From positions 2,048,001 through 2,112,000 of the forward strand of contig CBDDFZ010000001.1 of NCBI GenBank assembly GCA_965227515.1: a stretch of DNA of 64,000 nucleotides. Direction: 5' to 3'. The translations under genes were made by a program, and so were the position numbers. The DNA comes from Alphaproteobacteria bacterium. Its GTDB lineage: Bacteria; Pseudomonadota; Alphaproteobacteria; CALKHQ01. Shown here piece after piece: positions 21,369 through 39,592 of the stretch; position 1 is the first letter of the stretch; every line of letters begins with the position of its first letter. The notes under the pieces were generated by a model. That model was not told the DNA's origin. It saw only the letters and a program-made list of their open reading frames with translations, and ran no database searches.

Positions 21369-22115
21369 ATGGAGGATGCGATGACGGGCTGCACGGCACC
21401 GAACTTCCGCTTGAGGGATGCCATTGTCGCTATGGGCATGGTTGTCGCGGCTGCCTTCGCGCCGGCTGCCCATGCCGAGAACAATGCCCCCGGCAGCGTT
21501 GTCGGCAATAACCCCAACGACTTCGCCGACCGCTCGTCGGTGCGCATGGATTACATCCCGCTGCGCCTCGGCGCGTTCGAGACCGCGACGGTCCGGCGCA
21601 TGTTCGTCGTCATGGCCGGCGAGCTGTATGGCACCGAGCTGGACGGCATCGTCATCCGCCGCGACGAGAACCGCATCGGCCTCAACAACATCCCGATCCT
21701 GGGCGAGGTGACCCGTTTCGCCTACACGTCCGATATGTTCGCGCCTCAGTTCGGCGCCGGTTCTGTCGGCCTCATCGACGATGCGCTGGTCCTGAACATC
21801 GGCGTACTGCCGGGCCAGGTGCCCTGGTTGGGACCCATACTCTCCGAACGGCTGTCGGCCGCATTGTTGCAGCGGCCGATGATCCGGACCCCGCGCACAG
21901 GCTCCATCAGCGTGTCGACCATCGTGACCCTGAACGACGACTACAGCTTTGCCATCGCCGGTCAGGCGATCGAAGCGGTGGATGGGGTGACCGAGCGGAC
22001 TCCGCCGCCGCTGGGTGACATTCCCATCGTGGGGGAGCTGTTCACCACGACCAACACTGACAACAACACCCATGAACTGCTGGTCCTGGTCCGGCCCAGT
22101 ATCGTGGCTGACTGA
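21369..22115 (+). CDS. exported protein with a secretin (GspD/PilQ/RcpA)-like C-terminus, lacking N domains
   Basis: Signal peptide ending AHA; C-terminal P.LGDIPIVGELF...ELLVLVRPSIV matches the secretin signature. Start may be 21381. Confidence 0.65.
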   Translation: MEDAMTGCTAPNFRLRDAIVAMGMVVAAAFAPAAHAENNAPGSVVGNNPNDFADRSSVRMDYIPLRLGAFETATVRRMFVVMAGELYGTELDGIVIRRDENRIGLNNIPILGEVTRFAYTSDMFAPQFGAGSVGLIDDALVLNIGVLPGQVPWLGPILSERLSAALLQRPMIRTPRTGSISVSTIVTLNDDYSFAIAGQAIEAVDGVTERTPPPLGDIPIVGELFTTTNTDNNTHELLVLVRPSIVAD

Positions 22116-22121
22116 CTGGTC

Positions 22122-24038
22122 CTAACTAGGCGTCTGGCCGTCGTCTGCTACCGGCGCCAGTCCATGGAGCTGGCAGACCGCCACCGGGGCATCGCGGCCG
22201 TCGAGCTTGGTCTCGCCGATGGCGGTGAGGTCCGCGCCGGGTGACAGACGCGTTGCGGTCTCGGCGCTGATGACGACGGTGGTGCTGCCGTCGCCGTTCT
22301 GGACCGACTTGGCCATTGCCTCCAGGCGCTGGCAAACGTTCACCGTGTCGCCGACAACCGTGTAGTTCATGCGCTGTGGCGCACCGATGTTGCCGACTGT
22401 GGCCCTGCCGCTGTGCAGCCCGATCCTGAGATGCAGCGGCGGCGCCCCGGCGTCGCGGTTCCTGGCGTTGAACGCATCAATGGCATCGGCAATCGCCAAT
22501 GCCGCGCGGCACGCGCGCTCGGCATGGTCATGCTGTGGGTCGGGGGCGCCCCAGAACGCCATCAATCCGTCGCCGATGAACTTGTCGAGCGTGCCGGCCT
22601 CCGCTTCGATGCATTCGGCCAGGGTCGCGAAATGGCTGTTCAGGAAGCCGGCCACGTCCTGCGCGTCGCGCCCCTCCGACCAGCGCGTGAATCCGGCGAT
22701 ATCGGTGAACATGACCGTGACCTCGATGTCATGGGACTGCATCAGGGCCCGGTCGCCGCGCGCCATCAGGCGGCCGACCAGCCGGCGCGGCACGTAGATC
22801 TCGAACCAGCCGAGCGCGTTGATCATGTTGTTGAAGGCCGCTGCCTGGTCGTCCAACTCGCGGACATGGCTGCGCGGCAACTCCGTCAGCGCGCCGAACT
22901 CCATGCGCCCCACCTGAAGGCTGGCATCGGCGGCGCGGCGGATCGGCCGGGCAAGCCTGCGCGCGATCAGGATCGCGGCGATGATGGCGATGACGAGCAC
23001 GGCGAAGCTGACGCCGATGATGATGAGCAGGCGGCGAATTTCCAGGCCGATATCCCGGTCGTCGTAGTAGACGCCGAGAATGATCGGCCGGTCGGCATAG
23101 CCCGCCACTTCCTCGTAAACGTAGACGTAGGCCGTGTCGAAGGCGGTCAGGAAGTGTGCGGCGGTGCCCGGACGGAAGTCGATATAGTCGATTTCCTCGC
23201 GGCCTTCCTCCCACCACATGCGGCCAAGCACCGGATCGGCGAACCCGGCGAGGTCCGGCAGCGGCTCTTCCGGGGTCACGTCCACGTCGCCGACCGCGAA
23301 CAACGGGTGCGCCAGCACCTTGTCCGGCCCATAGAGCACGAACGCTGTGCCGTGGGTGCTCTGCGTGATGGTGTCCAGGAAGGCGGATATCTGACCGACC
23401 CTGACCGCAACCCCGATCAGGCCGAGCGGCTCTTCCAGGGTGCCGACAACGCGGACCAGGTTCACCACCGTGCCATCCAGTCCGTCGGACCAGGTTGGCG
23501 AGCCCCAGGCGTAGGGCGAGTCCAGCTGGCGCAGATAGGCCAGGGCCTCCTGCGGGTCCGGCCGCGTCATTGGAAAGATGCCGACTTCGCGCTCGCCGTC
23601 GGGGCCATTGCGCACGCCGACGGAGTTGCCTTCGAAGCGGATGAAGACGACGCCGTCGACCTGCGGCGTGGCGGCCAAGGCCCAGCCGAGAGCCTCGGCG
23701 ATCGCGTCGTTGTCGGTCAGGTCGATCCGTGGGTCGGCAAAACGCTCGGCCAGGTAGGCGGCCTGCTCCGCGCCGGGGTCGAGCTGCGCCGACAGTTCCT
23801 GGCGCACCGTATCCAGAATCAGGTGCGTCTTGTCGCCCAGCAGGCTGGCGGTGTTGGTGAAGGCGCCCCACAGCCAGACCGCGAGCACCACGCCGATGCC
23901 CACCGCCACCAGGGCGCCGATGACCAGCGACAGCACCATCGCCAGGCTGATGCGCCACCGCTTCGGCCGTCGATGCGCGCGCCCCTTGCCAAGACCGCGG
24001 GCGGGTCGGGCGGCCACGTGGCGACGAGGCTCTGTCAT
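22122..24038 (-). CDS. membrane class III adenylate/guanylate cyclase (TM-sensor-TM-HAMP-CYCc)
   Basis: FTDIAGFT, LDKFIGDGLMAFWGAP, RIGLHSG, NYTVVGDTVNVCQRLE; two TM helices. Start uncertain (track start 24224). Confidence 0.9.
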   Translation of the reverse strand: MTEPRRHVAARPARGLGKGRAHRRPKRWRISLAMVLSLVIGALVAVGIGVVLAVWLWGAFTNTASLLGDKTHLILDTVRQELSAQLDPGAEQAAYLAERFADPRIDLTDNDAIAEALGWALAATPQVDGVVFIRFEGNSVGVRNGPDGEREVGIFPMTRPDPQEALAYLRQLDSPYAWGSPTWSDGLDGTVVNLVRVVGTLEEPLGLIGVAVRVGQISAFLDTITQSTHGTAFVLYGPDKVLAHPLFAVGDVDVTPEEPLPDLAGFADPVLGRMWWEEGREEIDYIDFRPGTAAHFLTAFDTAYVYVYEEVAGYADRPIILGVYYDDRDIGLEIRRLLIIIGVSFAVLVIAIIAAILIARRLARPIRRAADASLQVGRMEFGALTELPRSHVRELDDQAAAFNNMINALGWFEIYVPRRLVGRLMARGDRALMQSHDIEVTVMFTDIAGFTRWSEGRDAQDVAGFLNSHFATLAECIEAEAGTLDKFIGDGLMAFWGAPDPQHDHAERACRAALAIADAIDAFNARNRDAGAPPLHLRIGLHSGRATVGNIGAPQRMNYTVVGDTVNVCQRLEAMAKSVQNGDGSTTVVISAETATRLSPGADLTAIGETKLDGRDAPVAVCQLHGLAPVADDGQTPS

Positions 24039-24120
24039 GTCGATGCTGTTCCGCTGCCCGTGACCATTACCGTCCGCTCGGCTAAGTTTAGCCGGCGAAA
24101 CGAATGAAAGGACATATGGT

Positions 24121-24933
24121 ATGGGCTTCGCGATTGCGCGACCTGTCTTCCAGCGCGGCATGGCGGCTATCGTCGCGCTGCCGCTGCTTCTTGTGGCCGC
24201 CGGCCCGTTGCAGGCCGCCGACAAGGCGACCGCCGAACTGGTGGGCTTCTCCCAGGACGGCCGCTATGTCGCGTTCGAGCAGTTTGGCAGCCAGGACGGG
24301 TCGGGGTTCCCGTATGCCGAGATCTTCATCATCGACGTTGCCGCGAACGATTGGGCGGTCGACCCGATACGGGTGCTGATCGACAACGACGCGCTTGCCG
24401 AAACGCTGCCGCCGCCGGCCGCGGTGATGAAAGCGCGCCAGGAAGCCGCCACCGAGGCGCGCAATGCGCTTGCCAGCCTTGGCATCATTCAGGGCAATGT
24501 CGGCACCCAGATGATCCACCGGCCCTATACCGACCTTGATGCGGCGCCGCACATCGCGACCTTCTCGATGACCGCGGTGGCGACCTCCTACATCGGCGAA
24601 CGGCACCAGGTGCTGCTGACGGAACGGCCGGCCGCGTCGCCCGACTGCGAGTACTTCGGCCCGAATGTCATCTTCACGCTGACGCTACAGCCAGACGGTG
24701 GCGTGCCGGTGGTGTTGCAGGAGGACCGCCAGTTGTTCTCCAGCCGCGGTTGCCCGCACGGCTATCGGATCGAGCAGGTGGTGCTCTATGGCCCGCTGGA
24801 GACCGGGCGTTATCTGCCCGACCTGGGCTCGTATGCGATGTTCGTGCTGGTCGGCATGAGCGTGCAGGGGTTCGAGGGCGACGACATCAGGTATCTGGGC
24901 GTGACCGCACACTTGCCGGAAGGCGTTCTCTGA
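24121..24933 (+). CDS. secreted protein, DUF2259-like
   Basis: Signal peptide; GFSQDGRYVAFEQFGSQDGSGFPYAEIFIID and SRGCP.GYRI. Confidence 0.75.
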   Translation: MGFAIARPVFQRGMAAIVALPLLLVAAGPLQAADKATAELVGFSQDGRYVAFEQFGSQDGSGFPYAEIFIIDVAANDWAVDPIRVLIDNDALAETLPPPAAVMKARQEAATEARNALASLGIIQGNVGTQMIHRPYTDLDAAPHIATFSMTAVATSYIGERHQVLLTERPAASPDCEYFGPNVIFTLTLQPDGGVPVVLQEDRQLFSSRGCPHGYRIEQVVLYGPLETGRYLPDLGSYAMFVLVGMSVQGFEGDDIRYLGVTAHLPEGVL

Positions 24934-25201: not shown

Positions 25202-28200
25202 ATGATGATAAGGGCGACAGGTATGTCAGATCGGTTAGGCGGCGAAGGCGGCAATTTCCACGGGACGTTCAGGTTCGACGGTGCTCCGTCGGAGGACTGG
25301 ACGCATGCTATCGCGATTTCGCGCGACCACGGGCGCACCGGTCCCGGCCACCGGCCCCTGAGCAATGACACGGGCGGCGGCGGCGGGCCCGACATTCCGG
25401 TCACCGACCCGACCGGCCACGTCATGTCCGCGCTCAGCGGCGCGGGCTGGCTTTGGTACCGCGACATGGACGTCAAGCCCGATGCGGCGGAGACGCAGGG
25501 TGCCGTCGTCCAGGATGTCGAGGTGCCGGTTGCGGGCGACGTCGACTCACGAGCGGCGACGGTGGACCGGCTTCCCGATGACGGTGAGGCTGCATCCCGG
25601 CCCGGCGGCCCGGCGTTCAGCATCGCTGACGGGCCGGAGGCGTTCGGTGGGCTTTCGCTGACCTCCGGCACGCGCGACGCATCCGGGGGCGGCGCTTCGT
25701 CCGGCGATGCACAGCGTGCGTTCTCGCGCCAAGAGCCGTCCCAGGCGGAGCCCGTGTCCGGGACTGGTGACGATCTGGTTGCGCAGCCGCGTGCCGCCGG
25801 CACGACGTCGGCAACATCTTCAAGTGGCGACGATGCGGCAGCCGACCCCGGTTCGACGACGGGGTCTGGCGGTGCCGGGAACATCCATGCGCCGACCGAC
25901 ATGGACCTCAGCGCCAACTCGATCGCCGAGGATGCGGCCGGCGGTACCGTGGTCGGCACGCTCTCCGCGACCGATGCCGACAGCGGCAACGTGTTCACCT
26001 ACACGCTGACCGGCGGGGCCACCGACACCTTCGAGATCGTCGGCGACGAGTTGCGCCTGAAGACCGGTGCGTCGTTGGATTACGAGACCGCCACGTCCCA
26101 TCCGGTGACGGTGACCGTCGATGACGGCAACGGCAACACCTACCAGGAGGCGTTCACCGTCAACGTCACCGACGTCAACGACAACGCCCAGGTGTTCACC
26201 TCGGGGTCGAGCGCGTCGGCGGCCGAGAACGTGTCCGACAGCGCGGTGATCTACACGGCCACGACGACGGACGTCGACACCACTGGCGAGGCGATCACCT
26301 ACTCGCTGGTCGACGACGCCGGCGGGCTGTTCGAGATCGACGCCTCGACGGGTGAGGTGACCCTCGCCACCGGTCAGTCGCTCGACTACGAGACCGCGAC
26401 CTCGCACAACATCACCGTCCGCTCGACCGACGGCACCAACTCGACCGACCAGGCGGTCACCATCAACGTCACCGATGTCAACGACACCGCGGCGACGGAT
26501 ATGGACCTCAGCGCCAACAGCATCGCCGAGGATGCGGCCGGCGGCACGGTGGTCGGCACGCTCTCCGCGACCGACGCCGACAGCGGCAACGTGTTCACCT
26601 ACACGCTCACCGGCGGGGCCACCGACACCTTCGAGATCGTCGGCGACGAGCTGCGCCTGAAGACGGGCGCCAGCCTCGACTACGAGACCGCCACGTCCCA
26701 TCCGGTGACGGTGACCGTCGATGACGGCAACGGCAACACCTACCAGGAGGCGTTCACCGTCAACGTCACCGACGTCAACGACAACGCCCAGGTCTTCACG
26801 TCTGGCTCCAGTGCAAGCGCGGCGGAGAACGTCAGCGACAGTGCGGTTCTTTACACGGCTACGACGACGGATGTGGACACCACCGGCGAGGCGATCACCT
26901 ACAGCCTCGTCGACGATGCCGGCGGGCTGTTCGAGATCGACGCTTCGACGGGTGAGGTCACGCTGGCCACCGGCCAGTCCCTCGACTACGAGACCGCGAC
27001 CTCGCACTCGATCACCGTCCGCTCCACCGACGGCACCAACAGCACCGACCAGGCGGTCACCATCAACGTCACCGATGTCAACGACACCGCGGCGACGGAT
27101 ATGGATCTCAGCGCCAACTCGATCGCCGAGGACGCGGCCGGCGGGACCGTGGTCGGCACCCTCAGTGCGACCGATGCCGACACCGGCAATGTGTTCACCT
27201 ACACGCTCACCGGCGGCGCCACCGATACCTTCGAGATCGTCGGCGACGAGCTGCGCCTGAAGACGGGCGCCAGCCTCGACTACGAGACCGCCACGTCTCA
27301 TCCGGTGACGGTCACCGTCGACGACGGCAACGGCAACACCTATCAGGAGGCGTTCACCGTCAACGTCACCGACGTCAACGACAACGCCCAGGTCTTCACG
27401 TCTGGCTCCAGTGCAAGCGCGGCGGAGAACGTCAGCGACAGTGCGGTTCTTTACACGGCTACGACGACGGATGTGGACACCACCGGCGAGGCGATCACCT
27501 ACAGCCTCGTCGACGATGCCGGCGGGCTGTTCGAGATCGACGCTTCGACGGGTGAGGTCACGCTGGCCACCGGCCAGTCCCTCGACTACGAGACCGCGAC
27601 CTCGCATTCGATCACCGTCCGCTCGACCGACGGCACCAACAGCACCGACCAGGCGGTCACCATCAACGTCACCGATGTCAACGACACCGCGGCGACGGAT
27701 ATGGACCTCAGCGCCAACAGCATCGCCGAGGACGCGGCGGGCGGTACCGTGGTCGGTACGCTCAGTGCGACCGACGCCGACACCGGCAACGTGTTCACCT
27801 ACACGCTCACCGGCGGCGCCACCGACACCTTCGAGATCGTCGGCGACGAGCTCAGGCTGAAGACGGGCGCGTCATTGGATTATGAGACCGCGACCTCGCA
27901 CCCGGTGACGGTCACCGTCGACGACGGCAACGGCAACACCTATCAGGAGGCGTTCACCGTCAACGTCACCGACGTCAACGACAACGCCCAGGTGTTTACA
28001 TCGGGGTCGAGCGCGTCGGCGGCCGAGAACGTGTCCGACAGCGCGGTCATCTACACCGCCACGACGACGGATGTGGACACCACCGGCGAGGCGATCACCT
28101 ACAGCCTCGTGGACGATGCCGGCGGGCTGTTCGAGATCGACGCCTCGACCGGTGAGGTGACCTTGGTCACCGGCCAGTCCCTCGACTACGAGACCGCGAC

Positions 28201-31200
28201 CTCGCACTCGATCACCGTCCGCTCGACCGACGGCACCAACTCGACCGACCAGGCGGTCACCATCAACGTCACCGATGTCAACGACACCGCGGCGACGGAT
28301 ATGGATCTGTCGGCGAACAGCATCGCCGAGGATGCGGCCGGCGGTACCGTGGTCGGCACGCTCTCCGCGACCGATGCCGACAGCGGCAACGTGTTCACCT
28401 ACACGCTGACCGGCGGGGCCACCGACACCTTCGAGATCGTCGGCGACGAGTTGCGCCTGAAGACCGGTGCGTCGTTGGATTACGAGACCGCCACGTCCCA
28501 TCCGGTGACGGTGACCGTCGATGACGGCAACGGCAACACCTACCAGGAGGCGTTCACCGTCAACGTCACCGACGTCAACGACAACGCCCAGGTGTTCACC
28601 TCGGGGTCGAGCGCGTCGGCGGCCGAGAACGTGTCCGACAGCGCGGTGATCTACACGGCCACGACGACGGACGTCGACACCACTGGCGAGGCGATCACCT
28701 ACTCGCTGGTCGACGACGCCGGCGGGCTGTTCGAGATCGACGCCTCGACGGGTGAGGTGACCCTCGCCACCGGTCAGTCGCTCGACTACGAGACCGCGAC
28801 CTCGCACAACATCACCGTCCGCTCCACCGACGGCACCAACTCGACCGACCAGGCGGTCACCATCAACGTCACCGATGTCAACGACACCGCGGCGACGGAT
28901 ATGGACCTCAGCGCCAACAGCATCGCCGAGGATGCGGCCGGCGGAACTGCCGTGGGCACGCTCTCCGCGACCGACGCCGACAGCGGCAACGTGTTCACCT
29001 ACACGCTGACCGGCGGGGCCACCGACACCTTCGAGATCGTCGGCGACGAGCTCAGGCTGAAGACCGGTGCGTCATTGGATTACGAGACCGCCACCTCGCA
29101 CCCGGTGACAGTCACCGTCGACGACGGCAACGGCAACACCTACCAGGAGGCGTTCACCGTCAACGTCACCGATGTCAACGACAACGCCCAGGTGTTTACA
29201 TCGGGCAGCTCGGCCAGCGCGGCGGAGAACGTGAGTGACTCGGCGGTGATCTACACGGCCACGACGACGGACGTCGACACCACTGGCGAGGCGATCACCT
29301 ACTCGCTGGTCGACGACGCCGGCGGGCTGTTCGAGATCGACGCCTCGACGGGTGAGGTGACCCTCGCCACCGGTCAGTCGCTCGACTACGAGACCGCGAC
29401 CTCGCACAACATCACCGTCCGCTCGACCGACGGCACCAACTCGACCGACCAGGCGGTCACCATCAACGTCACCGATGTCAACGACACCGCGGCGACGGAT
29501 ATGGATCTCAGCGCCAACTCGATCGCCGAGGACGCGGCCGGCGGGACCGTGGTCGGCACCCTCAGTGCGACCGATGCCGACACCGGCAATGTGTTCACCT
29601 ACACGCTCACCGGCGGCGCCACCGATACCTTCGAGATCGTCGGCGACGAGCTGCGCCTGAAGACGGGCGCCAGCCTCGACTACGAGACCGCCACGTCTCA
29701 TCCGGTGACGGTCACCGTCGACGACGGCAACGGCAACACCTATCAGGAGGCGTTCACCGTCAACGTCACCGACGTCAACGACAACGCCCAGGTCTTCACG
29801 TCTGGCTCCAGTGCAAGCGCGGCGGAGAACGTCAGCGACAGCGCGGTCATCTACACCGCGACCACCACCGATGTGGACACCACTGGCGAGGCGATCACCT
29901 ACAGCCTCGTCGACGACGCCGGCGGGCTGTTCGAGATCGACGCCTCGACGGGTGAGGTGACCCTCGCCACCGGTCAGTCGCTCGACTACGAGACCGCGAC
30001 CTCGCATTCGATCACCGTCCGCTCGACCGACGGCACCAACAGCACCGACCAGGCGGTCACCATCAACGTCACCGATGTCAACGACACCGCGGCGACGGAT
30101 ATGGACCTCAGCGCCAACAGCATCGCCGAGGACGCGGCGGGCGGTACCGTGGTCGGTACGCTCAGTGCGACCGACGCCGACACCGGCAACGTGTTCACCT
30201 ACACGCTGACCGGCGGCGCCACCGACACCTTCGAGATCGTCGGCGACGAGCTCAGGCTGAAGACGGGCGCGTCATTGGATTATGAGACCGCGACCTCGCA
30301 CCCGGTGACGGTCACCGTCGACGACGGCAACGGCAACACCTATCAGGAGGCGTTCACCGTCAACGTCACCGACGTCAACGACAACGCCCAGGTGTTTACA
30401 TCGGGGTCGAGCGCGTCGGCGGCCGAGAACGTGTCCGACAGCGCGGTCATCTACACCGCCACGACGACGGATGTGGACACCACCGGCGAGGCGATCACCT
30501 ACAGCCTCGTGGACGATGCCGGCGGGCTGTTCGAGATCGACGCCTCGACCGGTGAGGTGACCTTGGTCACCGGCCAGTCCCTCGACTACGAGACCGCGAC
30601 CTCGCACTCGATCACCGTCCGCTCGACCGACGGCACCAACTCGACCGACCAGGCGGTCACCATCAACGTCACCGATGTCAACGACACCGCGGCGACGGAT
30701 ATGGATCTGTCGGCGAACAGCATCGCCGAGGATGCGGCCGGCGGTACCGTGGTCGGCACGCTCTCCGCGACCGATGCCGACAGCGGCAACGTGTTCACCT
30801 ACACGCTGACCGGCGGGGCCACCGACACCTTCGAGATCGTCGGCGACGAGTTGCGCCTGAAGACCGGCGCGTCATTGGATTATGAGACCGCGACCTCGCA
30901 CCCGGTGACGGTGACCGTCGACGACGGCAACGGCAACACCTACCAGGAGGCGTTCACCGTCAACGTCACCGATGTCAACGACAACGCCCAGGTGTTTACA
31001 TCGGGGTCGAGCGCGTCGGCGGCCGAGAACGTGAGTGACTCGGCGGTCATCTACACCGCGACCACGACGGACGTGGACACCACCGGCGAGGCGATCACCT
31101 ATTCGCTGGTGGACGACGCCGGCGGGCTGTTCGAGATCGACGCCTCGACCGGCGAGGTCACCCTCGCCACCGGCCAGTCCCTCGACTACGAGACGGCCAC

Positions 31201-34200
31201 GTCGCACAACATCACCGTCCGCTCGACCGACGGCACCAACTCGACCGACCAGGCGGTCACCATCAACGTCACCGATGTCAACGACACCGCGGCGACGGAT
31301 ATGGATCTGTCGGCGAACAGCATCGCCGAGGACGCGGCCGGCGGTACCGTGGTCGGTACCTTGAGCGCGACCGATGCCGATACCGGCAACGTGTTCACCT
31401 ACACGCTCACCGGCGGCGCCACCGACACCTTCGAGATCGTCGGCGACGAGCTGCGCTTGAAGACCGGCGCCAGCCTCGACTACGAGACCGCCACGTCGCA
31501 CCCGGTGACGGTGACCGTCGACGACGGCAACGGCAACACCTATCAGGAAGCGTTCACCGTCAACGTCACCGATGTCAACGACAACGCCCAGGTGTTCACC
31601 TCGGGGTCGAGCGCGTCGGCGGCCGAGAACGTCAGCGACAGCGCGGTCATCTACACCGCGACCACCACCGATGTGGACACCACCGGCGAGGCGATCACCT
31701 ACAGCCTCGTGGACGATGCCGGCGGGCTGTTCGAGATCGATGCCTCGACCGGCGAGGTCACCTTGGCCACCGGCCAGTCCCTCGACTACGAGACCGCGAC
31801 CTCGCACAACATCACCGTCCGCTCGACCGACGGCACCAACAGCACCGACCAGGCGGTCACCATCAACGTCACCGATGTCAACGACACCGCGGCGACGGAT
31901 ATGGACCTCAGCGCCAACAGCATTGCCGAGGATGCGGCCGGCGGTACCGTGGTCGGCACGCTCAGTGCGACCGATGCCGACAGCGGCAATGTGTTCACCT
32001 ACACGCTGACCGGCGGCGCCACCGACACCTTCGAGATCGTCGGCGACGAGCTGCGCCTGAAGACGGGCGCCAGCCTCGACTACGAGACCGCCACGTCTCA
32101 TCCGGTGACGGTGACCGTCGACGACGGCAACGGCAACACCTATCAGGAGGCGTTCACCGTCAACGTCACCGACGTCAACGACAACGCCCAGGTCTTCACC
32201 TCCGGCAGCTCGGCCAGCGCGGCGGAGAACGTCAGCGACAGCGCGGTGATCTACACCGCCACGACGACGGATGTGGACACCACCGGCGAGGCGATCACCT
32301 ACAGCCTGGTAGACGACGCCGGCGGCCTGTTCGAGATCGACGCCTCGACCGGTGAGGTGACCCTCGCCACCGGCCAGTCCCTCGACTACGAGACCGCGAC
32401 CTCGCACTCGATCACCGTCCGCTCGACCGACGGCACCAACTCGACCGACCAGGCGGTCACCATCAACGTCACCGATGTCAACGACACCGCGGCGACGGAT
32501 ATGGATCTGTCGGCGAACAGCATCGCCGAGGACGCGGCCGGCGGTACCGTGGTCGGTACCTTGAGCGCGACCGATGCCGATACCGGCAACGTGTTCACCT
32601 ACACGCTCACCGGCGGCGCCACCGACACCTTCGAGATCGTCGGCGACGAGTTGCGCCTGAAGACCGGTGCGTCATTGGATTATGAGACCGCCACGTCTCA
32701 TCCGGTGACGGTGACCGTCGACGACGGCAACGGCAACACCTATCAGGAAGCGTTCACCGTCAACGTCACCGACGTCAACGACAACGCCCAGGTGTTTACA
32801 TCCGGCAGTTCGGCCAGCGCGGCGGAGAACGTCAGCGACAGCGCGGTCATCTACACCGCGACCACGACGGACGTGGACACCACCGGCGAGGCGATCACCT
32901 ACAGCCTCGTCGACGACGCCGGCGGGCTGTTCGAGATCGACGCCTCTACCGGTGAGGTGACCCTCGCCACCGGCCAGTCGCTCGACTACGAGACCGCGAC
33001 CTCGCACAACATCACCGTCCGCTCGACCGACGGCACCAACTCGACCGACCAGGCGGTCACCATCAACGTCACCGATGTCAACGACACCGCGGCGACGGAT
33101 ATGGACCTGTCGGCGAACAGCATCGCCGAGGACGCGGCGGGCGGTACCGTGGTCGGTACGCTCAGTGCGACCGACGCCGACACCGGCAATGTGTTCACCT
33201 ACACGCTGACCGGCGGCGCCACCGACACCTTCGAGATCGTCGGCGACGAGCTGCGCCTGAAGACCGGCGCCAGCCTCGACTACGAGACCGCGACCTCGCA
33301 CCCGGTGACGGTGACCGTCGACGACGGCAACGGCAACACCTATCAGGAAGCGTTCACCGTCAACGTCACCGATGTCAACGACAACGCCCAGGTGTTTACA
33401 TCAGGCAGCTCGGCCAGAGCGGCTGAGAACGTCAGCGACAGCGCGGTGATCTACACCGCGACCACGACGGACGTGGACACCACCGGCGAGGCGATCACCT
33501 ACAGCCTGGTCGACGACGCCGGTGGGCTGTTCGAGATCGACGCCTCCACCGGTGAGGTGACCCTCGCCACCGGCCAGTCGCTGGACTACGAGACCGCGAC
33601 CTCGCACTCGATCACCGTCCGCTCCACCGACGGCACCAACTCGACCGACCAGGCGGTCACCATCAACGTCACCGATGTCAACGACACCGCGGCGACGGAT
33701 ATGGACCTCAGCGCCAACAGCATCGCCGAGGATGCGGCCGGCGGAACTGTCGTGGGCACGCTCTCCGCGACCGACGCCGACAGCGGCAACGTGTTCACCT
33801 ACACGCTGACCGGCGGGGCCACCGACACCTTCGAGATCGTCGGCGACGAGCTCAGGCTGAAGACCGGTGCCAGCCTCGACTACGAGACCGCCACGTCCCA
33901 TCCGGTGACGGTGACCGTCGACGACGGCAACGGCAACACCTACCAGGAGGCGTTCACCGTCAACGTCACCGACGTCAACGACAACGCCCAGGTGTTTACA
34001 TCGGGGTCGAGCGCGTCGGCGGCCGAGAACGTGAGTGACTCGGCGGTCATCTACACCGCGACCACGACGGACGTCGACACCACGGGTGAGGCGATCACCT
34101 ATTCGCTGTGGATGACGCAGGCGGGCTGTTCGAGATCGATGCCTCCACCGGCGAGGTCACGCTGGCCACCGGCCAGTCGCTCGACTACGAGACCGCGACC

Positions 34201-37200
34201 TCGCACTCGATCACCGTCCGCTCGACCGACGGCACCAACTCGACCGACCAGGCGGTCACCATCAACGTCACCGATGTCAACGACACCGCGGCGACGGATA
34301 TGGATCTGTCGGCGAACAGCATCGCCGAGGACGCGGCCGGCGGTACCGTGGTCGGTACCTTGAGCGCGACCGATGCCGATACCGGCAACGTGTTCACCTA
34401 CACGCTCACCGGCGGCGCCACCGACACCTTCGAGATCGTCGGCGACGAGCTGCGCCTGAAGACCGGCGCCAGCCTCGACTACGAGACCGCGACCTCGCAC
34501 CCGGTGACGGTGACCGTCGATGACGGCAACGGCAACACCTACCAGGAGGCGTTCACCGTCAACGTCACCGACGTCAACGACAACGCCCAGGTGTTCACCT
34601 CGGGGTCGAGCGCGTCGGCGGCCGAGAGTGTCGCGGACACTGCGGTTCTGTATACGGCTACGACCACCGATGTGGACACCACCGGCGAGGCGATCACCTA
34701 CAGCCTGGTCGACGATGCCGGCGGGCTGTTCGAGATCGATGCCTCGACCGGCGAGGTCACCTTGGCCACCGGCCAGTCCCTCGACTACGAGACCGCGACC
34801 TCGCACAACATCACCGTCCGCTCGACCGACGGCACCAACAGCACCGACCAGGCGGTCACCATCAACGTCACCGATGTCAACGACACCGCGGCGACGGATA
34901 TGGACCTCAGCGCCAACAGCATTGCCGAGGATGCGGCCGGCGGTACCGTGGTCGGCACGCTCAGTGCGACCGACGCCGACAGCGGCAACGTGTTCACCTA
35001 CACGCTGACCGGCGGCGCCACCGACACCTTCGAGATCGTCGGCGACGAGTTGCGCCTGAAGACCGGCGCGTCATTGGATTATGAGACCGCGACCTCGCAC
35101 CCGGTGACGGTGACCGTCGACGACGGCAACGGCAACACCTACCAGGAGGCGTTCACCGTCAACGTCACCGATGTCAACGACAACGCCCAGGTGTTTACAT
35201 CGGGGTCGAGCGCGTCGGCGGCCGAGAACGTGAGTGACTCGGCGGTCATCTACACCGCGACCACGACGGACGTCGACACCACGGGTGAGGCGATCACCTA
35301 TTCGCTGGTGGATGACGCAGGCGGGCTGTTCGAGATCGATGCCTCCACCGGCGAGGTCACGCTGGCCACCGGCCAGTCGCTCGACTACGAGACCGCGACC
35401 TCGCACTCGATCACCGTCCGCTCGACCGACGGCACCAACTCGACCGACCAGGCGGTCACCATCAACGTCACCGATGTCAACGACACCGCGGCGACGGATA
35501 TGGATCTGTCGGCGAACAGCATCGCCGAGGACGCGGCCGGCGGTACCGTGGTCGGTACCTTGAGCGCGACCGATGCCGACAGCGGCAATGTGTTCACCTA
35601 CACGCTCACCGGCGGGGCCACCGACACCTTCGAGATCGTCGGCGACGAGCTGCGCCTGAAGACCGGCGCGTCATTGGATTATGAGACGGCGACCTCGCAC
35701 CCGGTGACGGTGACCGTCGACGACGGCAACGGCAACACCTATCAGGAAGCGTTCACCGTCAACGTCACCGATGTCAACGACAACGCCCAGGTGTTTACAT
35801 CCGGCAGTTCGGCCAGCGCGGCGGAGAACGTCAGCGACAGCGCGGTCATCTACACCGCGACCACGACGGATGTGGACACCACCGGCGAGGCGATCACCTA
35901 CAGCCTCGTCGACGACGCCGGCGGGCTGTTCGAGATCGATGCCTCGACGGGTGAGGTGACCCTCGCCACCGGCCAGTCGCTCGACTACGAGACGGCCACC
36001 TCGCACAACATCACCGTCCGCTCGACCGACGGCACCAACTCGACCGACCAGGCGGTCACCATCAACGTCACCGATGCGAATGACGCGCCGTCAGATCTCG
36101 CGCTGACTGAGACCGGTGGCATTGCGCTCAATACCGACGGCGGCAACAACGCCTATCTCTACGCGACCGATAGTGGCGACCTACTCGGCGGGCTCACCGA
36201 GGCCACGGTAGAAGTCGCATTTCAGTCGAACAACGCGTCCAACAGCACGTTCATCCCCCTGTTTTCCTACCACGCAGGTGGCTCCAGCGACGAATTCACT
36301 GTCGTGATCGACACGGACGATCAGCGATTTGATATCGAGGTCGGCGAACAGACGATCTACGCCACGGGCTACGATCCGAACGTATTGCTCGATGGAAAGG
36401 AGCACCAAGTCTCCTTCACCTGGGACAACACGTCAGGCGACTGGGCGATCTACGTCGACGGTACTTCGGTTCTCAATGGCACCGGCTTGGCGACTGGGCA
36501 CACCATTGCAAGTGGCGGTACCATCGTTCTGGGACAGGAGCAGGACAGCAACGCTGGCAGTTTCGACACCACGCAGGTGTTCGACGGCACGATATACGAC
36601 GTGCGTATCTTCAACGACGCGCGGACGGCGCAGGAAATCAGCGACAATGCGTTCGGGCAGGTCGATGCAAGCGAGAGCGGGCTGGTAGCCGACTGGCGGA
36701 TGGACGATCTGTCCGGCGGCGTCACAACGGATGCCGTTTCCGGCCATAACCTTTCTGTCGGCAACGTGACCGGCACAGGCTGGGTGGCGAGCACGCCGAG
36801 CCTGGTAACCGGTCTGATCGAAGGTGCGGCCAACGGCCATCTGGTCGGCCAAGTATCGGCCAGCGACCAGGATGCGGGCGAGACCTTCACCTACAGCCTG
36901 GTCGATGACGCCGATGGCCTGTTCGCCATCGATGCGACAACCGGCGAGATCACGATCGCCGACAACTCGCGGGTCGACTACGACCAGGAGCAGAGCCATC
37001 AATTCACGGTTCAAGTCACCGACAGCGGCGGTGCCAGTTACCAGGAAACCTATTCGCTGTCAGTGCAGGACGACGGCGCCGAGAGTACATCGGACTCGTA
37101 CGAGGCCGCGGTGATGGGCCATGATCCAGTGGCCTATCTGCGGCTGGATGCGGCGGCCGACGGTGTGGTGGCTGACGGCGGGGGCTACGGCGACACCGCC

Positions 37201-38388
37201 GCCGACGAGACCGGCAACCACAACGGCACCTACAATGGCGGCACCGACCCAGAGAGCGACGGCCCCTTCAACAACATCTCGACCGGGTCGACCGAATTCG
37301 ACGGCGACAACGAGTATGTGCAGATTGCCCACTCGTCCGATTTTGAACTATCGAGTGGAACAATCCAGCTGTGGTTCAACTCGGACGATGTCGGCAGCCA
37401 GAAAAAACAACTAGTTCACAAAGAAGGTGTGGATGATCTTCAAATCTTCATTGAGAACGGAAAAATTACGGCAGGATTTGGTGGCGATAAAGTAGAGTAT
37501 ACGGGTGTAACCGCTGGCTCATGGTATCACATGTCATTTTCGTGGGGAGCAAGCGGACTGCAGTTGTACATAGATGGCGACTTGAAAGACACCAAATCTA
37601 GCTCAAAAAACCTCGCCGACACCGATGAGGATCTGTTCATCGGAATGAAATCTACTGGCAATGAATACTTCGACGGCAGCATTGCCGAGTTTGCGGTATT
37701 CGAAAGTCAGCTGTCTGAGGCCGAAATCGATGCCATCATAGATGCCGGGGTCAACGGCTATGAGGTCGGCACGGGTACCGCCGGCAACGATGTCCTGACC
37801 GGCGGCGGCGCGGATGAGCAGTTCTACGGCGAGGCCGGTGACGATTCGGTCGCCGCCGGCGCGGGTGTCGATACCGTTTATGCCGGCGAGGGCGACGACA
37901 GCGTCGCCGGCGATGCGGGCGACGACACCGTCTATGGCGGTGATGGTGCCGACACCATTTCCGGTGGCGACGGCAACGACCTGCTGCACGGCGGGGCCGG
38001 CAATGACACGATCACCGGCGACGCAGGAAACGACATCATCCATGGCGGTTCCGGCGATGACGCGATGTGGGGCGGTCTTGGCAACGACACCCTGATCGGC
38101 GGTACGGGCGACGACACGCTCTACGGCGAGGCCGGCGACGACCTGTTCATCATGGAGGCCGGCGGCGGCAACGACGTGGTGACGGGCGGCACCGGCACCA
38201 ACTGGATCGAGGTGCAGGACGTTGCGCAGGCGCCGAACACCGGCGACTGGACCTACACCCTGACCAACGGGTCCGTCACCAACACCGGTGGCGACTACGT
38301 CGAGTTCACGGCGGGAGCCGATGGCTATGTCGAGCTGACCGACGGCACGACGATGACGTTCACCGACATCGACCGCATCGAGTGGTAG
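25202..38388 (+). CDS. giant cadherin-repeat RTX adhesin (probable T1SS substrate), ~4395 aa if a 1-nt deletion near 34108 is corrected
   Basis: Track ORFs 25202-34363 and 34108-38388. Cadherin motifs LDYE / TDVND / DAD; then LamG/pentraxin-like, cadherin, second LamG-like, GGxGxD repeats and C-terminal FTDIDRIEW. No Sec signal. Start uncertain. Confidence 0.88.
25901..36075 (+). repeat. 17 tandem 600-bp units, each encoding two cadherin-like domains (200 aa)
   Basis: ATGGA(C/T)CT unit starts at 25901, 26501 ... 33701, then 34300, 34900 and 35500 (1-nt shift after the deletion). Confidence 0.95.
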
Positions 38389-38401: not shown

Positions 38402-39592
38402 CTACGGGGCCGGCGCGAACACGTCCTGCGGATGCGCCACGCCCTTCAGCGCGAAGCTGCCGACGTGGCGCATGGGCAGGGTGCAGGTGGCGGCGAAGTC
38501 GGCCGAAACCAGCAGGGCCTCGCCTGTTGCGGCGCACAGGCCCTCCACCCGCGCGGCCAGGTTCACCGCCGGGCCGATAACCGTGAAGTCGAGCCGGGTC
38601 TCCGAGCCGATGTTGCCGTACATCGCATCGCCGATATGCAGCCCGATGCCATAGTCGATTTCTGCCAGCCCGCGGGCACGCCGGGTCGCGTTCACCTTGC
38701 CGAGTTCGCTGGCGGCCAGTTCGGCGGCAGCCAGGGCACGGGCGCACGTCTGCGCGGCGGCGGCCGGTTCCCGGATCGGAAAGATCGCCAGCATCGCGTC
38801 GCCGATGAACTTCAACACTTCGCCGCCATGGCGCTCCACCGCCGAACACATGACGCCGAAATAGTCGTTCAGCAGGGCGAGCAGCGCGTCGCGATCCAGG
38901 GCCTCGTTCAGCGCCGTGAAGCCGCGCAGGTCGCAGATCCAGATCGCGGCGTTGATGGTCTCGCCCATCCCCCGGCGCACCGCACCGGCCAGGACCCGCG
39001 CGCCGGCGTCGGGGCCGACATAAGTGCGCAGCAGCGTTGCGGCGGTGCGCTGCAGCGTCTGCACCTCCAGCACCATCGCCATCGCCGGCATGATCGATTC
39101 CAGCGCGGCCAGGTCATCATCGTCGAACCCACCCGGCGACCTGGTGGCGAAGGTCACGACCTTGATAGTGCCGTCGGAGAAGGGCGCCCCCAATGCCACG
39201 TAGTCCGACAGGCCCATCGCGCGCAGGTCCGCCAGCACGGCAAACTCGCCGGGCTGCGGCGGCGCGGTCAGGCGACAGCGCACAGGCCCTTTGCCCTGGT
39301 AGACCAGATTCGGCGGGCTCTCCGTGAAGCTTCTCAGGTCCCGTTCCTCGGCAAAGTACGACCGGGTGACGAAGGGCGCGTCGCGTCGCCACTCGCCGCT
39401 CGACGATGCGACCTGTGGGTGGAGGATCGGGATGCCGGTGGTGATCCGGTCGACGACGATGCCTGTTGCCTGCAATCGGTCGCCCAGACCGCGCAACAGG
39501 GCCTCGGTGTCCAAGGCACGGGTCTCGCTGCGCATCAGCCAATCGACAAGCGGTGCGCTGCGCCGGTATCCCGTTCCGCCAGTATTGGGCAT
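38402..39592 (-). CDS. soluble class III adenylate/guanylate cyclase with a GAF-like N-terminus
   Basis: ICDLRGFT, LKFIGDAMLAIF, GIGLHIG, GNIGSETRLDFTVIGPAVNLAARVE. Confidence 0.9.
   Translation of the reverse strand: MPNTGGTGYRRSAPLVDWLMRSETRALDTEALLRGLGDRLQATGIVVDRITTGIPILHPQVASSSGEWRRDAPFVTRSYFAEERDLRSFTESPPNLVYQGKGPVRCRLTAPPQPGEFAVLADLRAMGLSDYVALGAPFSDGTIKVVTFATRSPGGFDDDDLAALESIMPAMAMVLEVQTLQRTAATLLRTYVGPDAGARVLAGAVRRGMGETINAAIWICDLRGFTALNEALDRDALLALLNDYFGVMCSAVERHGGEVLKFIGDAMLAIFPIREPAAAAQTCARALAAAELAASELGKVNATRRARGLAEIDYGIGLHIGDAMYGNIGSETRLDFTVIGPAVNLAARVEGLCAATGEALLVSADFAATCTLPMRHVGSFALKGVAHPQDVFAPAP

Follow-up and report, generated by a model that had tools for sequence, protein, structure and literature searches.

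We analyzed a window of 64,000 nucleotides (nt) from the genome of an alphaproteobacterium (GCA_965227515.1, contig CBDDFZ010000001.1, positions 2,048,001 to 2,112,000; the window is this whole stretch, numbered from its first letter). It contains a giant gene for a predicted cadherin/LamG/RTX adhesin with a tandem array of 17 repeat units (Table 1). The source genome, G000, is complete (5.52 Mb in 2 contigs), and all 19 matches of the repeat unit in it fall in the adhesin gene. Each unit encodes a pair of cadherin domains of the EC type (A and B) with linkers that read DVNDN/DVNDT; DVNDNAQ and DVNDTAA can be read directly in the translation, and Tandem Repeats Finder detects a 300-nt half-period with 62% matches. 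In a Pfam profile search the two domains matched PF00028 with 80.2 and 114.8 bits (cut-off 28.8), and the best match of the unit in a PDB sequence search was CELSR1 (8vy2, E 3.4e-44), followed by protocadherins, FAT4 and cadherin-23. A single-sequence AlphaFold2 model of the unit had a predicted local distance difference test score of 47.5, too poor for judging the fold. The 17 units provide 34 EC domains, to which one degenerate EC domain is added downstream; the tail of unit 17 is divergent from about position 36076. Judged from its sequence, the array would form the extender stalk of a surface adhesin that binds Ca2+ and combines cadherin repeats with LamG and RTX domains, with a presumed type I secretion signal at the C-terminus. 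By domain content the protein would be grouped with the type I-secreted RTX adhesins that have stalks of tandem Ca-binding beta-sandwich domains.

Table 1. Features of the adhesin gene and its repeat array
Feature	Coordinates	Strand	Details
Giant cadherin/LamG/RTX adhesin gene	25202..38388	+	~4,395 amino acids (aa) once the missing base is allowed for
Open reading frames (ORFs) of the gene as assembled	25202-34363 and 34108-38388	+	3053 aa and 1426 aa; overlapping
N-terminal non-repeat part	25202..25897	+	~232 aa; rich in Gly, Ser, Ala, Asp; low-complexity
Repeat array	25898..36096	+	17 units of 600 nt (unit 14, 599 nt)
Unit starts	25898+600k (k=0..13), then 34297, 34897, 35497	+
Recent tandem duplication of a four-unit (2.4 kb) block	25922..30867	+	tracts identical at a four-unit shift
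Isolated Ser switch, unit codon 182 (first copy)	26441..26443	+	TCG in 12 units, AGC in 5
Boundary stretch of 56 nt (first copy)	26444..26499	+	unit positions 547-602; invariant in units 1-16; every 600 nt
One-base gap in unit 14	34107..34108	+	G missing from CTG-GTG; causes a frameshift
Pentaxin/Laminin-G-type lectin-fold domain	36208..36699	+	PF00354, E 7.7e-21
Second concanavalin-like domain (Laminin_G_3)	37300..37728	+	PF13385, E 1.6e-31
RTX nonapeptide Ca-binding repeats and C-terminus	37849..38388	+	PF00353 (HemolysinCabind), E 4.8e-28, 4 stretches

The units are nearly constant in protein and diverged in DNA. Over the 17 units, 142 of the 600 nucleotide columns vary, as against 14 of the 200 amino acid columns, five of which are confined to the divergent tail of unit 17. 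Any two units are separated by 1-92 of the 600 nt. At the protein level the differences range from 0 to 10 aa: 0-3 for the majority of pairs, 4-6 where unit 15 is one of the two, and 5-10 where unit 17, with its divergent tail, is involved. DNA divergence among the repeats is 8-15%, with a mean of 55 differences per 579 nt. When codons were compared across the 136 unit pairs (193 codons), 5454 of the 5750 differences were silent and 296 were replacements, a silent:replacement ratio of 18.4; the Nei-Gojobori mean synonymous distance over the same pairs was 0.34. These figures bear out an earlier note on this DNA, which had described the span 25901-36075, the same array as ours, as near-identical in protein over 17 units but mosaic in DNA. 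The codon versions that it listed are all present: those of TSGSSAS in units 1, 2, 6 and 12, tac tcg ctg / tac agc ctc, gcg tcg ttg gat / gcc agc ctc gac, and aac tcg / aac agc, as are the S/R change in unit 13 and the ESVADT patch in unit 15.

Silent variation of any kind is found at 45 of the 93 Thr, Ala, Val and Gly positions, and 11 of the 19 Ser positions hold both codon families, TCN and AGY, with minor-allele counts of 3-8 among 16-17 units. Leu positions show CTC and TTG, and Arg positions CGC and AGG. The amino acid polymorphisms have a similar character: at codon 171 an N/S polymorphism pairs AAC with TCG, three bases apart, and five of nine such polymorphisms (AAC/TCG, ATC/CTT, AAC/AGT, AGC/GCG and GTG/GCC) differ by two to three bases, as is typical of old divergence and not of new mutation. 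Ser is involved in six of the nine.

The codon usage of the array is the genome's own. Rare codons make up 4.7%, against 6.7% expected, the G+C content at third codon positions (GC3) is 0.92, and the variable codons number 94, where drawing twice and independently from genomic usage would give 89.6. In the non-repeat ends of the gene (25202-25897 and 36097-38385), GC3 is 0.75-0.76 and rare codons amount to 16-19% (0.76 and 19% in the N-terminal part); this contrast may be a trace of GC-biased gene conversion in the array or may reflect a different history of the ends. The variable codons are clustered (68 runs, against 100.3, s.d. 7.1). Diversity per 10-codon bin ranges from 0.00 to 0.48 and is at its minimum where each of the two EC domains reaches its C-terminal end; some 40% of the unit hardly varies. 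The 56-nt boundary stretch corresponds to a Ca-binding linker (...VTINVTDVNDTAATD) and is free of silent variation in units 1-16, and the first EC domain likewise ends in a cold stretch. The boundary stretch may serve as a preferred crossover site for the gain and loss of whole units.

We examined the relationships among the units with the pairwise homoplasy index (PHI), site compatibility and the Hudson-Kaplan minimum number of recombination events (Rmin). Among 131 variable sites, 119 were parsimony-informative, 111 biallelic and 12 singletons. Incompatibility was found for 64.5% of informative site pairs and grew with distance, from 7% at 1-5 nt to 37% at 6-15 nt, 55% at 16-30 nt and ~65-70% beyond. 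Rmin was 33 in 579 nt, and the observed PHI of 0.559 (against 0.683, s.d. 0.010) was reached in none of 2000 permutations. Units far apart in the array were no less similar than close ones (r = 0.12, p = 0.087); the average difference was 54.8 positions for adjacent units and 55.2 for all pairs. Tajima's D was +1.81, and the folded spectrum was flat. Thus, the variation is a fine mosaic that cannot be a simple duplication tree, and the reassortment of blocks between units proposed in the earlier note is real.

The same data make it scarcely conceivable that the units are ancient duplicates under purifying selection that never exchanged sequence. Such pure birth-and-death would account for a constant protein with diverged silent sites, and other arrays are silent-saturated at 2-10% amino acid difference. 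It is refuted, however, by the incompatible site pairs and the Rmin value, and also by units 4 and 8, which differ by a single nucleotide, and by identical tracts of 400-660 nt that recur at a shift of four units.

These shifted tracts reveal a recent tandem duplication, in which the sequence from position 25 of unit 1 to position 170 of unit 5 corresponds to that from position 25 of unit 5 to position 170 of unit 9. Four tracts within it are identical: 503 nt (unit 1, positions 25-527, and unit 5), 398 nt (unit 2 position 547 to unit 3 position 344, and units 6-7), 227 nt (unit 3 position 484 to unit 4 position 110, and units 7-8) and 659 nt (unit 4 position 112 to unit 5 position 170, and units 8-9). 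Since the duplication, a tract of ~540 nt has been replaced in the pair of units 2 and 6 (65 differences) and one of ~140 nt in the pair of units 3 and 7 (17 differences), and just two single-base changes have occurred. The 11 differences between units 1 and 5 include those at their start, which we had considered as a short conversion patch; this candidate was rejected because the start of unit 5 equals that of unit 9, which identifies the differences as the duplication breakpoint. Exchange is therefore recent and ongoing relative to point mutation, in agreement with the gene conversion postulated in the earlier note, but the tracts that we see are long, not the short patches that it envisaged. 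The decay of linkage over 15-30 nt can stem from many overlapping long events.

No source for the variation was found outside the aligned units. None of the 2777 distinct 20-mers of the array occurs elsewhere in the genome, and only one of 468 12-mers containing a Ser-switch codon was found at another offset or on the other strand of the array (background, 3.7%). Copying from a template at another genomic site, between the A and B half-units or from the opposite strand was ruled out by these searches. For cassette-type antigenic variation or diversity generation, too, no donor copies or template were found elsewhere in the genome, and 95% of the variation is silent.

A mosaic could also arise from the assembly or polishing of a long repeat, and unit 14 gives this concern some substance. 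The earlier note had missed that this unit is one base short, and the frameshift has no read support; frameshift errors have been reported in long repetitive RTX adhesin genes even from long-read assemblies, in the part of the preprint available (bioRxiv 10.1101/2025.09.30.679566). We mapped Logan contigs from four runs (X1-X4) on positions 33800-34399. Run X1, possibly the source sample, contains 0.81 of the words sampled; X2 is a biofloc metagenome, X3 comes from organism B and X4 from organism C, all three from other studies. In X1 the sole contig across 34107/34108 (151 nt) has an extra G and no other difference. Three perfectly matching X1 contigs with depths of 32.2 (3 copies), 123.1 (10 copies) and 48.5 (4 copies) calibrate the depth to ~11-12 per copy, so that the depth of the G-form contig, 21.1, corresponds to two copies. 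The G form is present once in the assembly, in unit 16, and unit 14 therefore most likely has the G too. A 226-nt contig of X3 also has the G, with 0 mismatches otherwise. The frameshift is thus most likely an assembly or consensus error and not the mark of a pseudogene, leaving one ORF of ~4,395 aa; the split of the gene in the annotation is probably mistaken.

The mosaic itself is another matter. In X1, 42 of 84 contigs match the array at 99% identity or better, including contigs of 67-151 nt with 0 mismatches over several blocks, which tells against the assembly mosaic that the earlier note had named as a possible undoing of its proposal. The same alleles occur in the runs of the three other studies, and errors would not be 95% silent. 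Read support is confined to short contigs, with the long-range phasing of blocks beyond its reach; even so, we attach only a minimal probability to an artefactual mosaic.

We then compared the frequency of serine codon-class switching with two controls. For the first, a 200-kb stretch of a genome of the same family (G001) was matched to the ORFs of G000 (one-way best matches, at least 60% identity). Conserved fourfold-degenerate codons differed at 0.32-0.36 in these orthologues, which is saturation, and the codon class had switched at 79 of 533 conserved Ser positions, or 0.15 (0.092-0.174 by identity bin); switching between CTN and TTR at Leu was 0.07-0.085 and switching at Arg 0.02-0.06. In the array, by contrast, the fourfold difference is 0.193, with a Ser class difference of 0.280, 0.185 for Leu and 0.191 for Arg (2 sites). 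As a second control we used a codon mutation-selection model that took its codon usage from the genome, assumed exponential coalescence times and was fitted to the fourfold value. It predicts 0.074 for Leu, 0.021 for Arg and a Ser class difference of 0.005-0.018 at any strength of selection against non-Ser residues, so that the array value is 15-50 times the prediction. Sites tolerant of both Ser and Thr were rejected as the sole cause: a fully neutral Thr gives a Ser class difference of 0.013 and predicts 48% Thr, and none of the 187 codons at the 11 switch sites encodes Thr. The Ser class excess is real against both controls, in line with the recurrent TCN/AGY switching and Ser excess described in the earlier note.

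The orthologue figure also bears on where the switches might come from. If multi-nucleotide or templated mutations produced them and purifying selection let only the silent ones pass, an isolated three-base switch with no change beside it, as at codon 182, would be natural, and serine "island jumping" on short branches is a known anomaly in codon models, according to the part of PMC7954308 available. By arithmetic from the model calibration, however, such mutations would need a rate several times that of a single transversion to give 0.28; orthologues of the genome show just 0.15 switching at saturation, and neither the genome nor the other offsets and strands of the array supply a template. 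We consider a mutational origin very unlikely.

Import is somewhat easier to entertain, though still improbable. Here the deep allele classes would have entered by recombination with the arrays of related strains or species that form a large external pool. Pieces at least 99% identical to the array are present in X2, X3 and X4 together with alternative alleles, for example TCG>AGC at 34309-34311, and unit 15 carries a unique divergent patch. This patch (codons 111-125, 34630-34680) combines ESVADT, Leu118 and several private silent changes, with more than 12 differences, and has some alleles in common with units 2 and 3; it may be the remnant of a lost unit lineage or an import. Against a general role of import, family-level divergence at saturation switched only the 0.15 of Ser positions noted above, compared with 11 of 19 in the array, the array uses the genome's own codons, and neither among 5.8 billion proteins nor in 61 related genomes did any protein exceed 51-54% identity to the unit. 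Import would also move the question elsewhere without answering it.

The flanks of the switches carry information about their age. In unit pairs that differ in Ser class, the adjacent non-Ser codon differs at 0.50, where the equilibrium from genomic usage is 0.49; flank divergence is 0.43 at two codons and ~0.2 by five codons. In pairs of the same Ser class the adjacent codon differs at 0.13, and the values beside fourfold and twofold differences are 0.38 and 0.18. Slower kinds of change therefore mark a locally deeper history, a hierarchy of flank ages that fits natural accumulation rather than design.

We tentatively favour, at a little less than even probability, an account in which old duplicates, their protein very strongly constrained, have been partly homogenized, with multi-base silent differences outlasting single-base ones. 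Very strong purifying selection (silent:replacement about 18:1) would have kept the protein near constant while silent sites drifted towards the codon-usage equilibrium of the genome. The array would turn over by homologous exchange, in which blocks are duplicated and tracts between one hundred and several hundred bases long are replaced. Through this exchange ~60% of the former silent divergence would have been lost and the remainder shuffled into a fine mosaic, in which the surviving differences would be enriched for multi-base silent differences, that is, for Ser TCN/AGY, Leu CTN/TTG and Arg CGC/AGG and tight clusters of these. Mismatches hinder homologous exchange, and multi-base differences may be relics that outlast single-base ones because exchange tracts end or abort at runs of adjacent mismatches. 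Selection for avoiding instability would not be needed. The scarcity of singletons (12 of 131) and the Tajima's D value count for old divergence. The data show the anatomy of the gene, the silent excess, the mosaic, recent exchange and the excess at Ser and Leu; both the age of the duplicates and the reason for multi-base survival are points that we infer.

Several observations weigh against this account. Long replacement tracts carry whole Ser-switch clusters between units, as the 65 sites at which units 2 and 6 differ illustrate; the clusters are therefore not immune to overwriting, and drift among 17 copies should be fast. A local-depth control, in which the depth at each Ser site was taken from the flanking codons and flanks at equilibrium were treated as infinitely old, still left a summed Ser class diversity over 17 sites of 4.97, against 0.9-2.8 expected. 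The switches at codons 182, 8 and 113 lie in nearly invariant flanks, unlike old islands; around codon 182 no further variable site occurs within 15 nt upstream or 56 nt downstream. Near-total protein constancy at such silent divergence is unusual for a stalk domain. Finally, with the best identity outside the array at 45-54%, no close orthologous array was available to date the events. Apart from this, neighbouring Ser codons in the pairs 104/105, 113/115 and 5/8 are always of opposite or mixed class: codons 104/105 read TCG AGC or AGC TCG, never TCN TCN, and in none of the three pairs do both codons read TCN in any unit.

The weak points of the account by relics are what selection on the DNA itself would explain. 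In this alternative, which we consider rather unlikely but a serious rival, selection against collapse-prone perfect repeats keeps, and even creates, silent differences between copies, a natural codon scrambling. The multi-base switches at Ser, Leu and Arg would be the strongest breakers of identity, Ser above all as the sole residue with two unconnected codon families, and would be kept by a form of balancing selection. The excess over the model at Ser and Leu speaks for it, and at Ser it persists after correction for local depth. So do the intermediate allele frequencies with the positive Tajima's D and few singletons, the peak of divergence at the switch codons with its decay within a few codons, as around balanced polymorphisms, and the persistence of both switch alleles despite long overwriting tracts; the three-base switch at codon 182 lies inside the least variable stretch. 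A selection coefficient of about the deletion rate of 600-bp repeats could be visible in large bacterial populations.

The arrangement of the array tells against such selection. The array still contains perfect tracts of 659, 503, 407 and 398 nt, and 35 perfect tracts of at least 50 nt lie between adjacent units; the unit boundary does not vary in units 1-16, and about 40% of the unit varies hardly at all. In arrays shuffled by permuting local blocks among units, tracts of at least 200 nt numbered 0.2, against 7 in the real array, and the summed excess tract length was 18,243 (s.d. 127), against 18,770. The array is thus not optimised for short identity and does no better than shuffles, and the proposal of the earlier note that mismatches are maintained to limit collapse was not borne out by the comparison of identity tracts with simulation that it had called for. 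Adjacent units also differ no more than distant ones do, most sites have two alleles, only common codons are used, flank divergence equals the neutral equilibrium and does not exceed it, and a Ser switch still requires a non-Ser intermediate. Taken together, the evidence does not decide between relics and maintenance: the long tracts speak against maintenance, the Tajima's D value and the persisting alleles for it.

We searched for relatives of the array. Among 61 related genomes, 13 (G000 included) had any match to the unit, with a best outside identity of 46-54%; in a search of 5.8 billion proteins, 2299 of 2897 scored candidates passed, with a best non-self identity of 45-51%. Neither search yielded a close orthologous array for dating, and a 30-mer from the invariant boundary had 0 matches in metagenome contigs and 0 in genome contigs. 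The homologue in G001 has 64% in common in the C-terminal LamG region and 52% in the RTX region, with no flanking synteny within 11 kb. A same-genus pair, G150 and G270, was discarded for orthologue dating, as the G270 gene lacks the 111-aa period and the G150 array is cut by a contig end.

A class-wide search for Cadherin domains gave matches in 31 of 301 genomes, G000 among them, and eight arrays with runs of near-identical units (threshold 0.9) served as comparators (Table 2). The loci L046, L049, L050, L051 and L026 and those of G004 were dropped for want of such a run; G046 and G003 were computed with divergent end units included and are less clean. A similar silent:replacement ratio was found in two of the eight, G150 and G308, and in G150 both Ser codon families occur at 5 of 11 Ser sites. 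The combination of constant protein and silent divergence does recur, therefore, in other cadherin-type arrays of the class. With 17 units of 200 aa, the array studied here is the largest and cleanest case and has the highest ratio of Ser class to fourfold difference (1.45, against 0-1.05 in the eight comparators). The arrays of G150, G308, G109 and G013 presumably represent its starting state. Those of the lower-GC genomes G208, G194 and G062 lack the silent-divergence pattern.

Table 2. Cadherin-type arrays used for comparison
Array	Units	nt difference	aa difference	Silent:replacement	Fourfold difference	Ser class difference
G150 (L048, G150:C5)	3 x 111 aa	16.6%	2.4%	17.5	0.46	0.29
G308 (L044, G308:C28)	6 x 102 aa	10.3%	2.0%	13.6	0.31	0.04
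G109	6 x 101 aa	18.7%	7.9%	4.8	0.51	0.18
G013	4 x 94 aa	15.7%	8.3%	3.1	0.27	0.29
G208 (two arrays), G194, G062	3-7 x 96-100 aa	5.8-7.8%	6.7-7.6%	0.6-1.3	0.04-0.19	0.00

The evolutionary pattern closest to that of the array is polyubiquitin, but with exchange between repeats. Both consist of head-to-tail coding repeats with a (nearly) identical protein and differing silent sites. Nei, Rogozin and Piontkivska reportedly argued for birth-and-death of polyubiquitin under purifying selection. Whether its genes follow concerted evolution or birth-and-death is debated, as the available part of PMC10457151 sets out. Ubiquitin is among the most conserved proteins, whereas the array unit has no relative above 51-54% identity, and the array shows clear inter-repeat exchange together with a Ser codon-class excess. 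It thus has the protein identity and silent divergence expected of birth-and-death of the polyubiquitin type but contradicts the absence of exchange, and it displays the mosaic, non-tree-like sharing by which concerted evolution through intragenic recombination or gene conversion is recognized.

Among giant adhesins, region II of MpIBP/MpAFP, an RTX adhesin extender, consists of ~120 identical 104-residue repeats, as given in the consulted part of PMC4083281. RTX adhesins with serial pairs of dissimilar extenders have been described (in sections of bioRxiv 10.1101/2025.09.30.679566), as has the role of Ca2+ in extender linkers (in sections of PMC7493085). The adhesin analyzed here resembles these proteins in its giant size, its tandem beta-sandwich stalk with Ca-binding linkers, the lectin-like domains near the C-terminus and the terminal RTX region, and also in the serial repetition of a two-domain unit. 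It differs in that its domains are of true EC-cadherin type (PF00028), the repeat DNA is 8-15% diverged instead of near-identical, and the 64-kb window lacks type I secretion genes. Periscope Proteins, which likewise have surface-protein stalks of near-identical domains, are defined as a class by high DNA identity that lets the repeat number vary, in the available portion of PMC8201768; the array, by contrast, pairs protein identity with DNA divergence, and few of its unit pairs are near-identical.

The serine codons have their own parallels. The switching of Ser codon sets at conserved positions was the subject of the Averof 2000/Rogozin 2016 debate, summarised in the part of PMC7954308 available and also treated in the accessible text of PMC6872785. 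There, too, TCN/AGY changes affect residues that stay Ser, but they are rare events on species trees, whereas the array is polymorphic at 11 of 19 Ser positions within one gene. A dipeptide minisatellite also encodes a repetitive peptide with both Ser codon families in a fixed mixture, and its repeats are unstable on cloning; its mixture lies inside each 18-nt unit, whereas the array alternates the families between 600-nt units at the same position. In synthetic codon scrambling, repetitive genes are recoded for synthesis and stability. As in the array, one protein repeat is written with other codons in each copy; the designed copies are independent, whereas those of the array share blocks, are mostly biallelic and retain long identical tracts. 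In full-text searches of the literature, supplements aside, we found no bacterial adhesin repeats described as protein-identical and silently diverged with Ser codon-set switching, nor any account of Ser island jumping gathered within a single repeat array, and the word "synonymous" has 0 occurrences in the accessible text of PMC8201768 and 10.1101/2025.09.30.679566.

If multi-base silent differences outlast single-base ones, or are selected over them, the array is a natural experiment on identity, repeat stability and gene conversion. It would then also bear on how Ser codons cross between TCN and AGY, offering eleven crossings in one gene with flanks usable for dating. It is a natural counterpart to the recoding of repeats in synthetic biology and suggests a second regime for giant adhesins beside the length-variable periscope proteins. 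Should selection have scrambled the codons, there would be two such regimes, one DNA-identical and length-variable (periscope) and one DNA-scrambled and length-stable (this array, G150 and G308). In practical terms, the case shows that unique assembly is feasible for a 10-kb array of repeats with identical protein.

The setting of the gene is ordinary chromosomal, with two adenylate/guanylate cyclase genes, DUF2259, MarR and trehalose phosphatase genes around it. None of the 42 window ORFs scanned encodes a type I secretion component (ATP-binding cassette, membrane fusion or outer membrane protein), and in the genome outside the window the top match to TIGR01842 scored 414.7 bits, below the cut-off of 510. 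No Pfam family matched the N-terminal part of the adhesin, including any for a retention module with a LapG cleavage site. Six LapG-like genes (Peptidase_C93, PF06035) are present in the genome, none of them in the window; two, on C1 and C2, score identically. So many are unusual, and they hint at more than one LapA-type system for adhesin release, probably several.

The cyclase-domain genes lie one on each side of the adhesin gene (22122-24224 and 38402-39592, both on the minus strand) and may serve nucleotide-signalling control of surface attachment. A 248-aa ORF at 21369-22115 (+) matches the secretin family in its C-terminal part only (profile positions 96-168 of 169) and resembles a truncated or fragmentary secretin gene. 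Within the adhesin gene, a 27/54-nt tandem repeat at 37849-37954 falls in the RTX region. GC content is flat over the region. The array (26001-36000) has an AT skew of +0.19 to +0.25 and a GC skew of -0.06 to -0.10, skews that the flanks lack and that are due to its coding composition, rich in Thr, Asp, Ala and Val.

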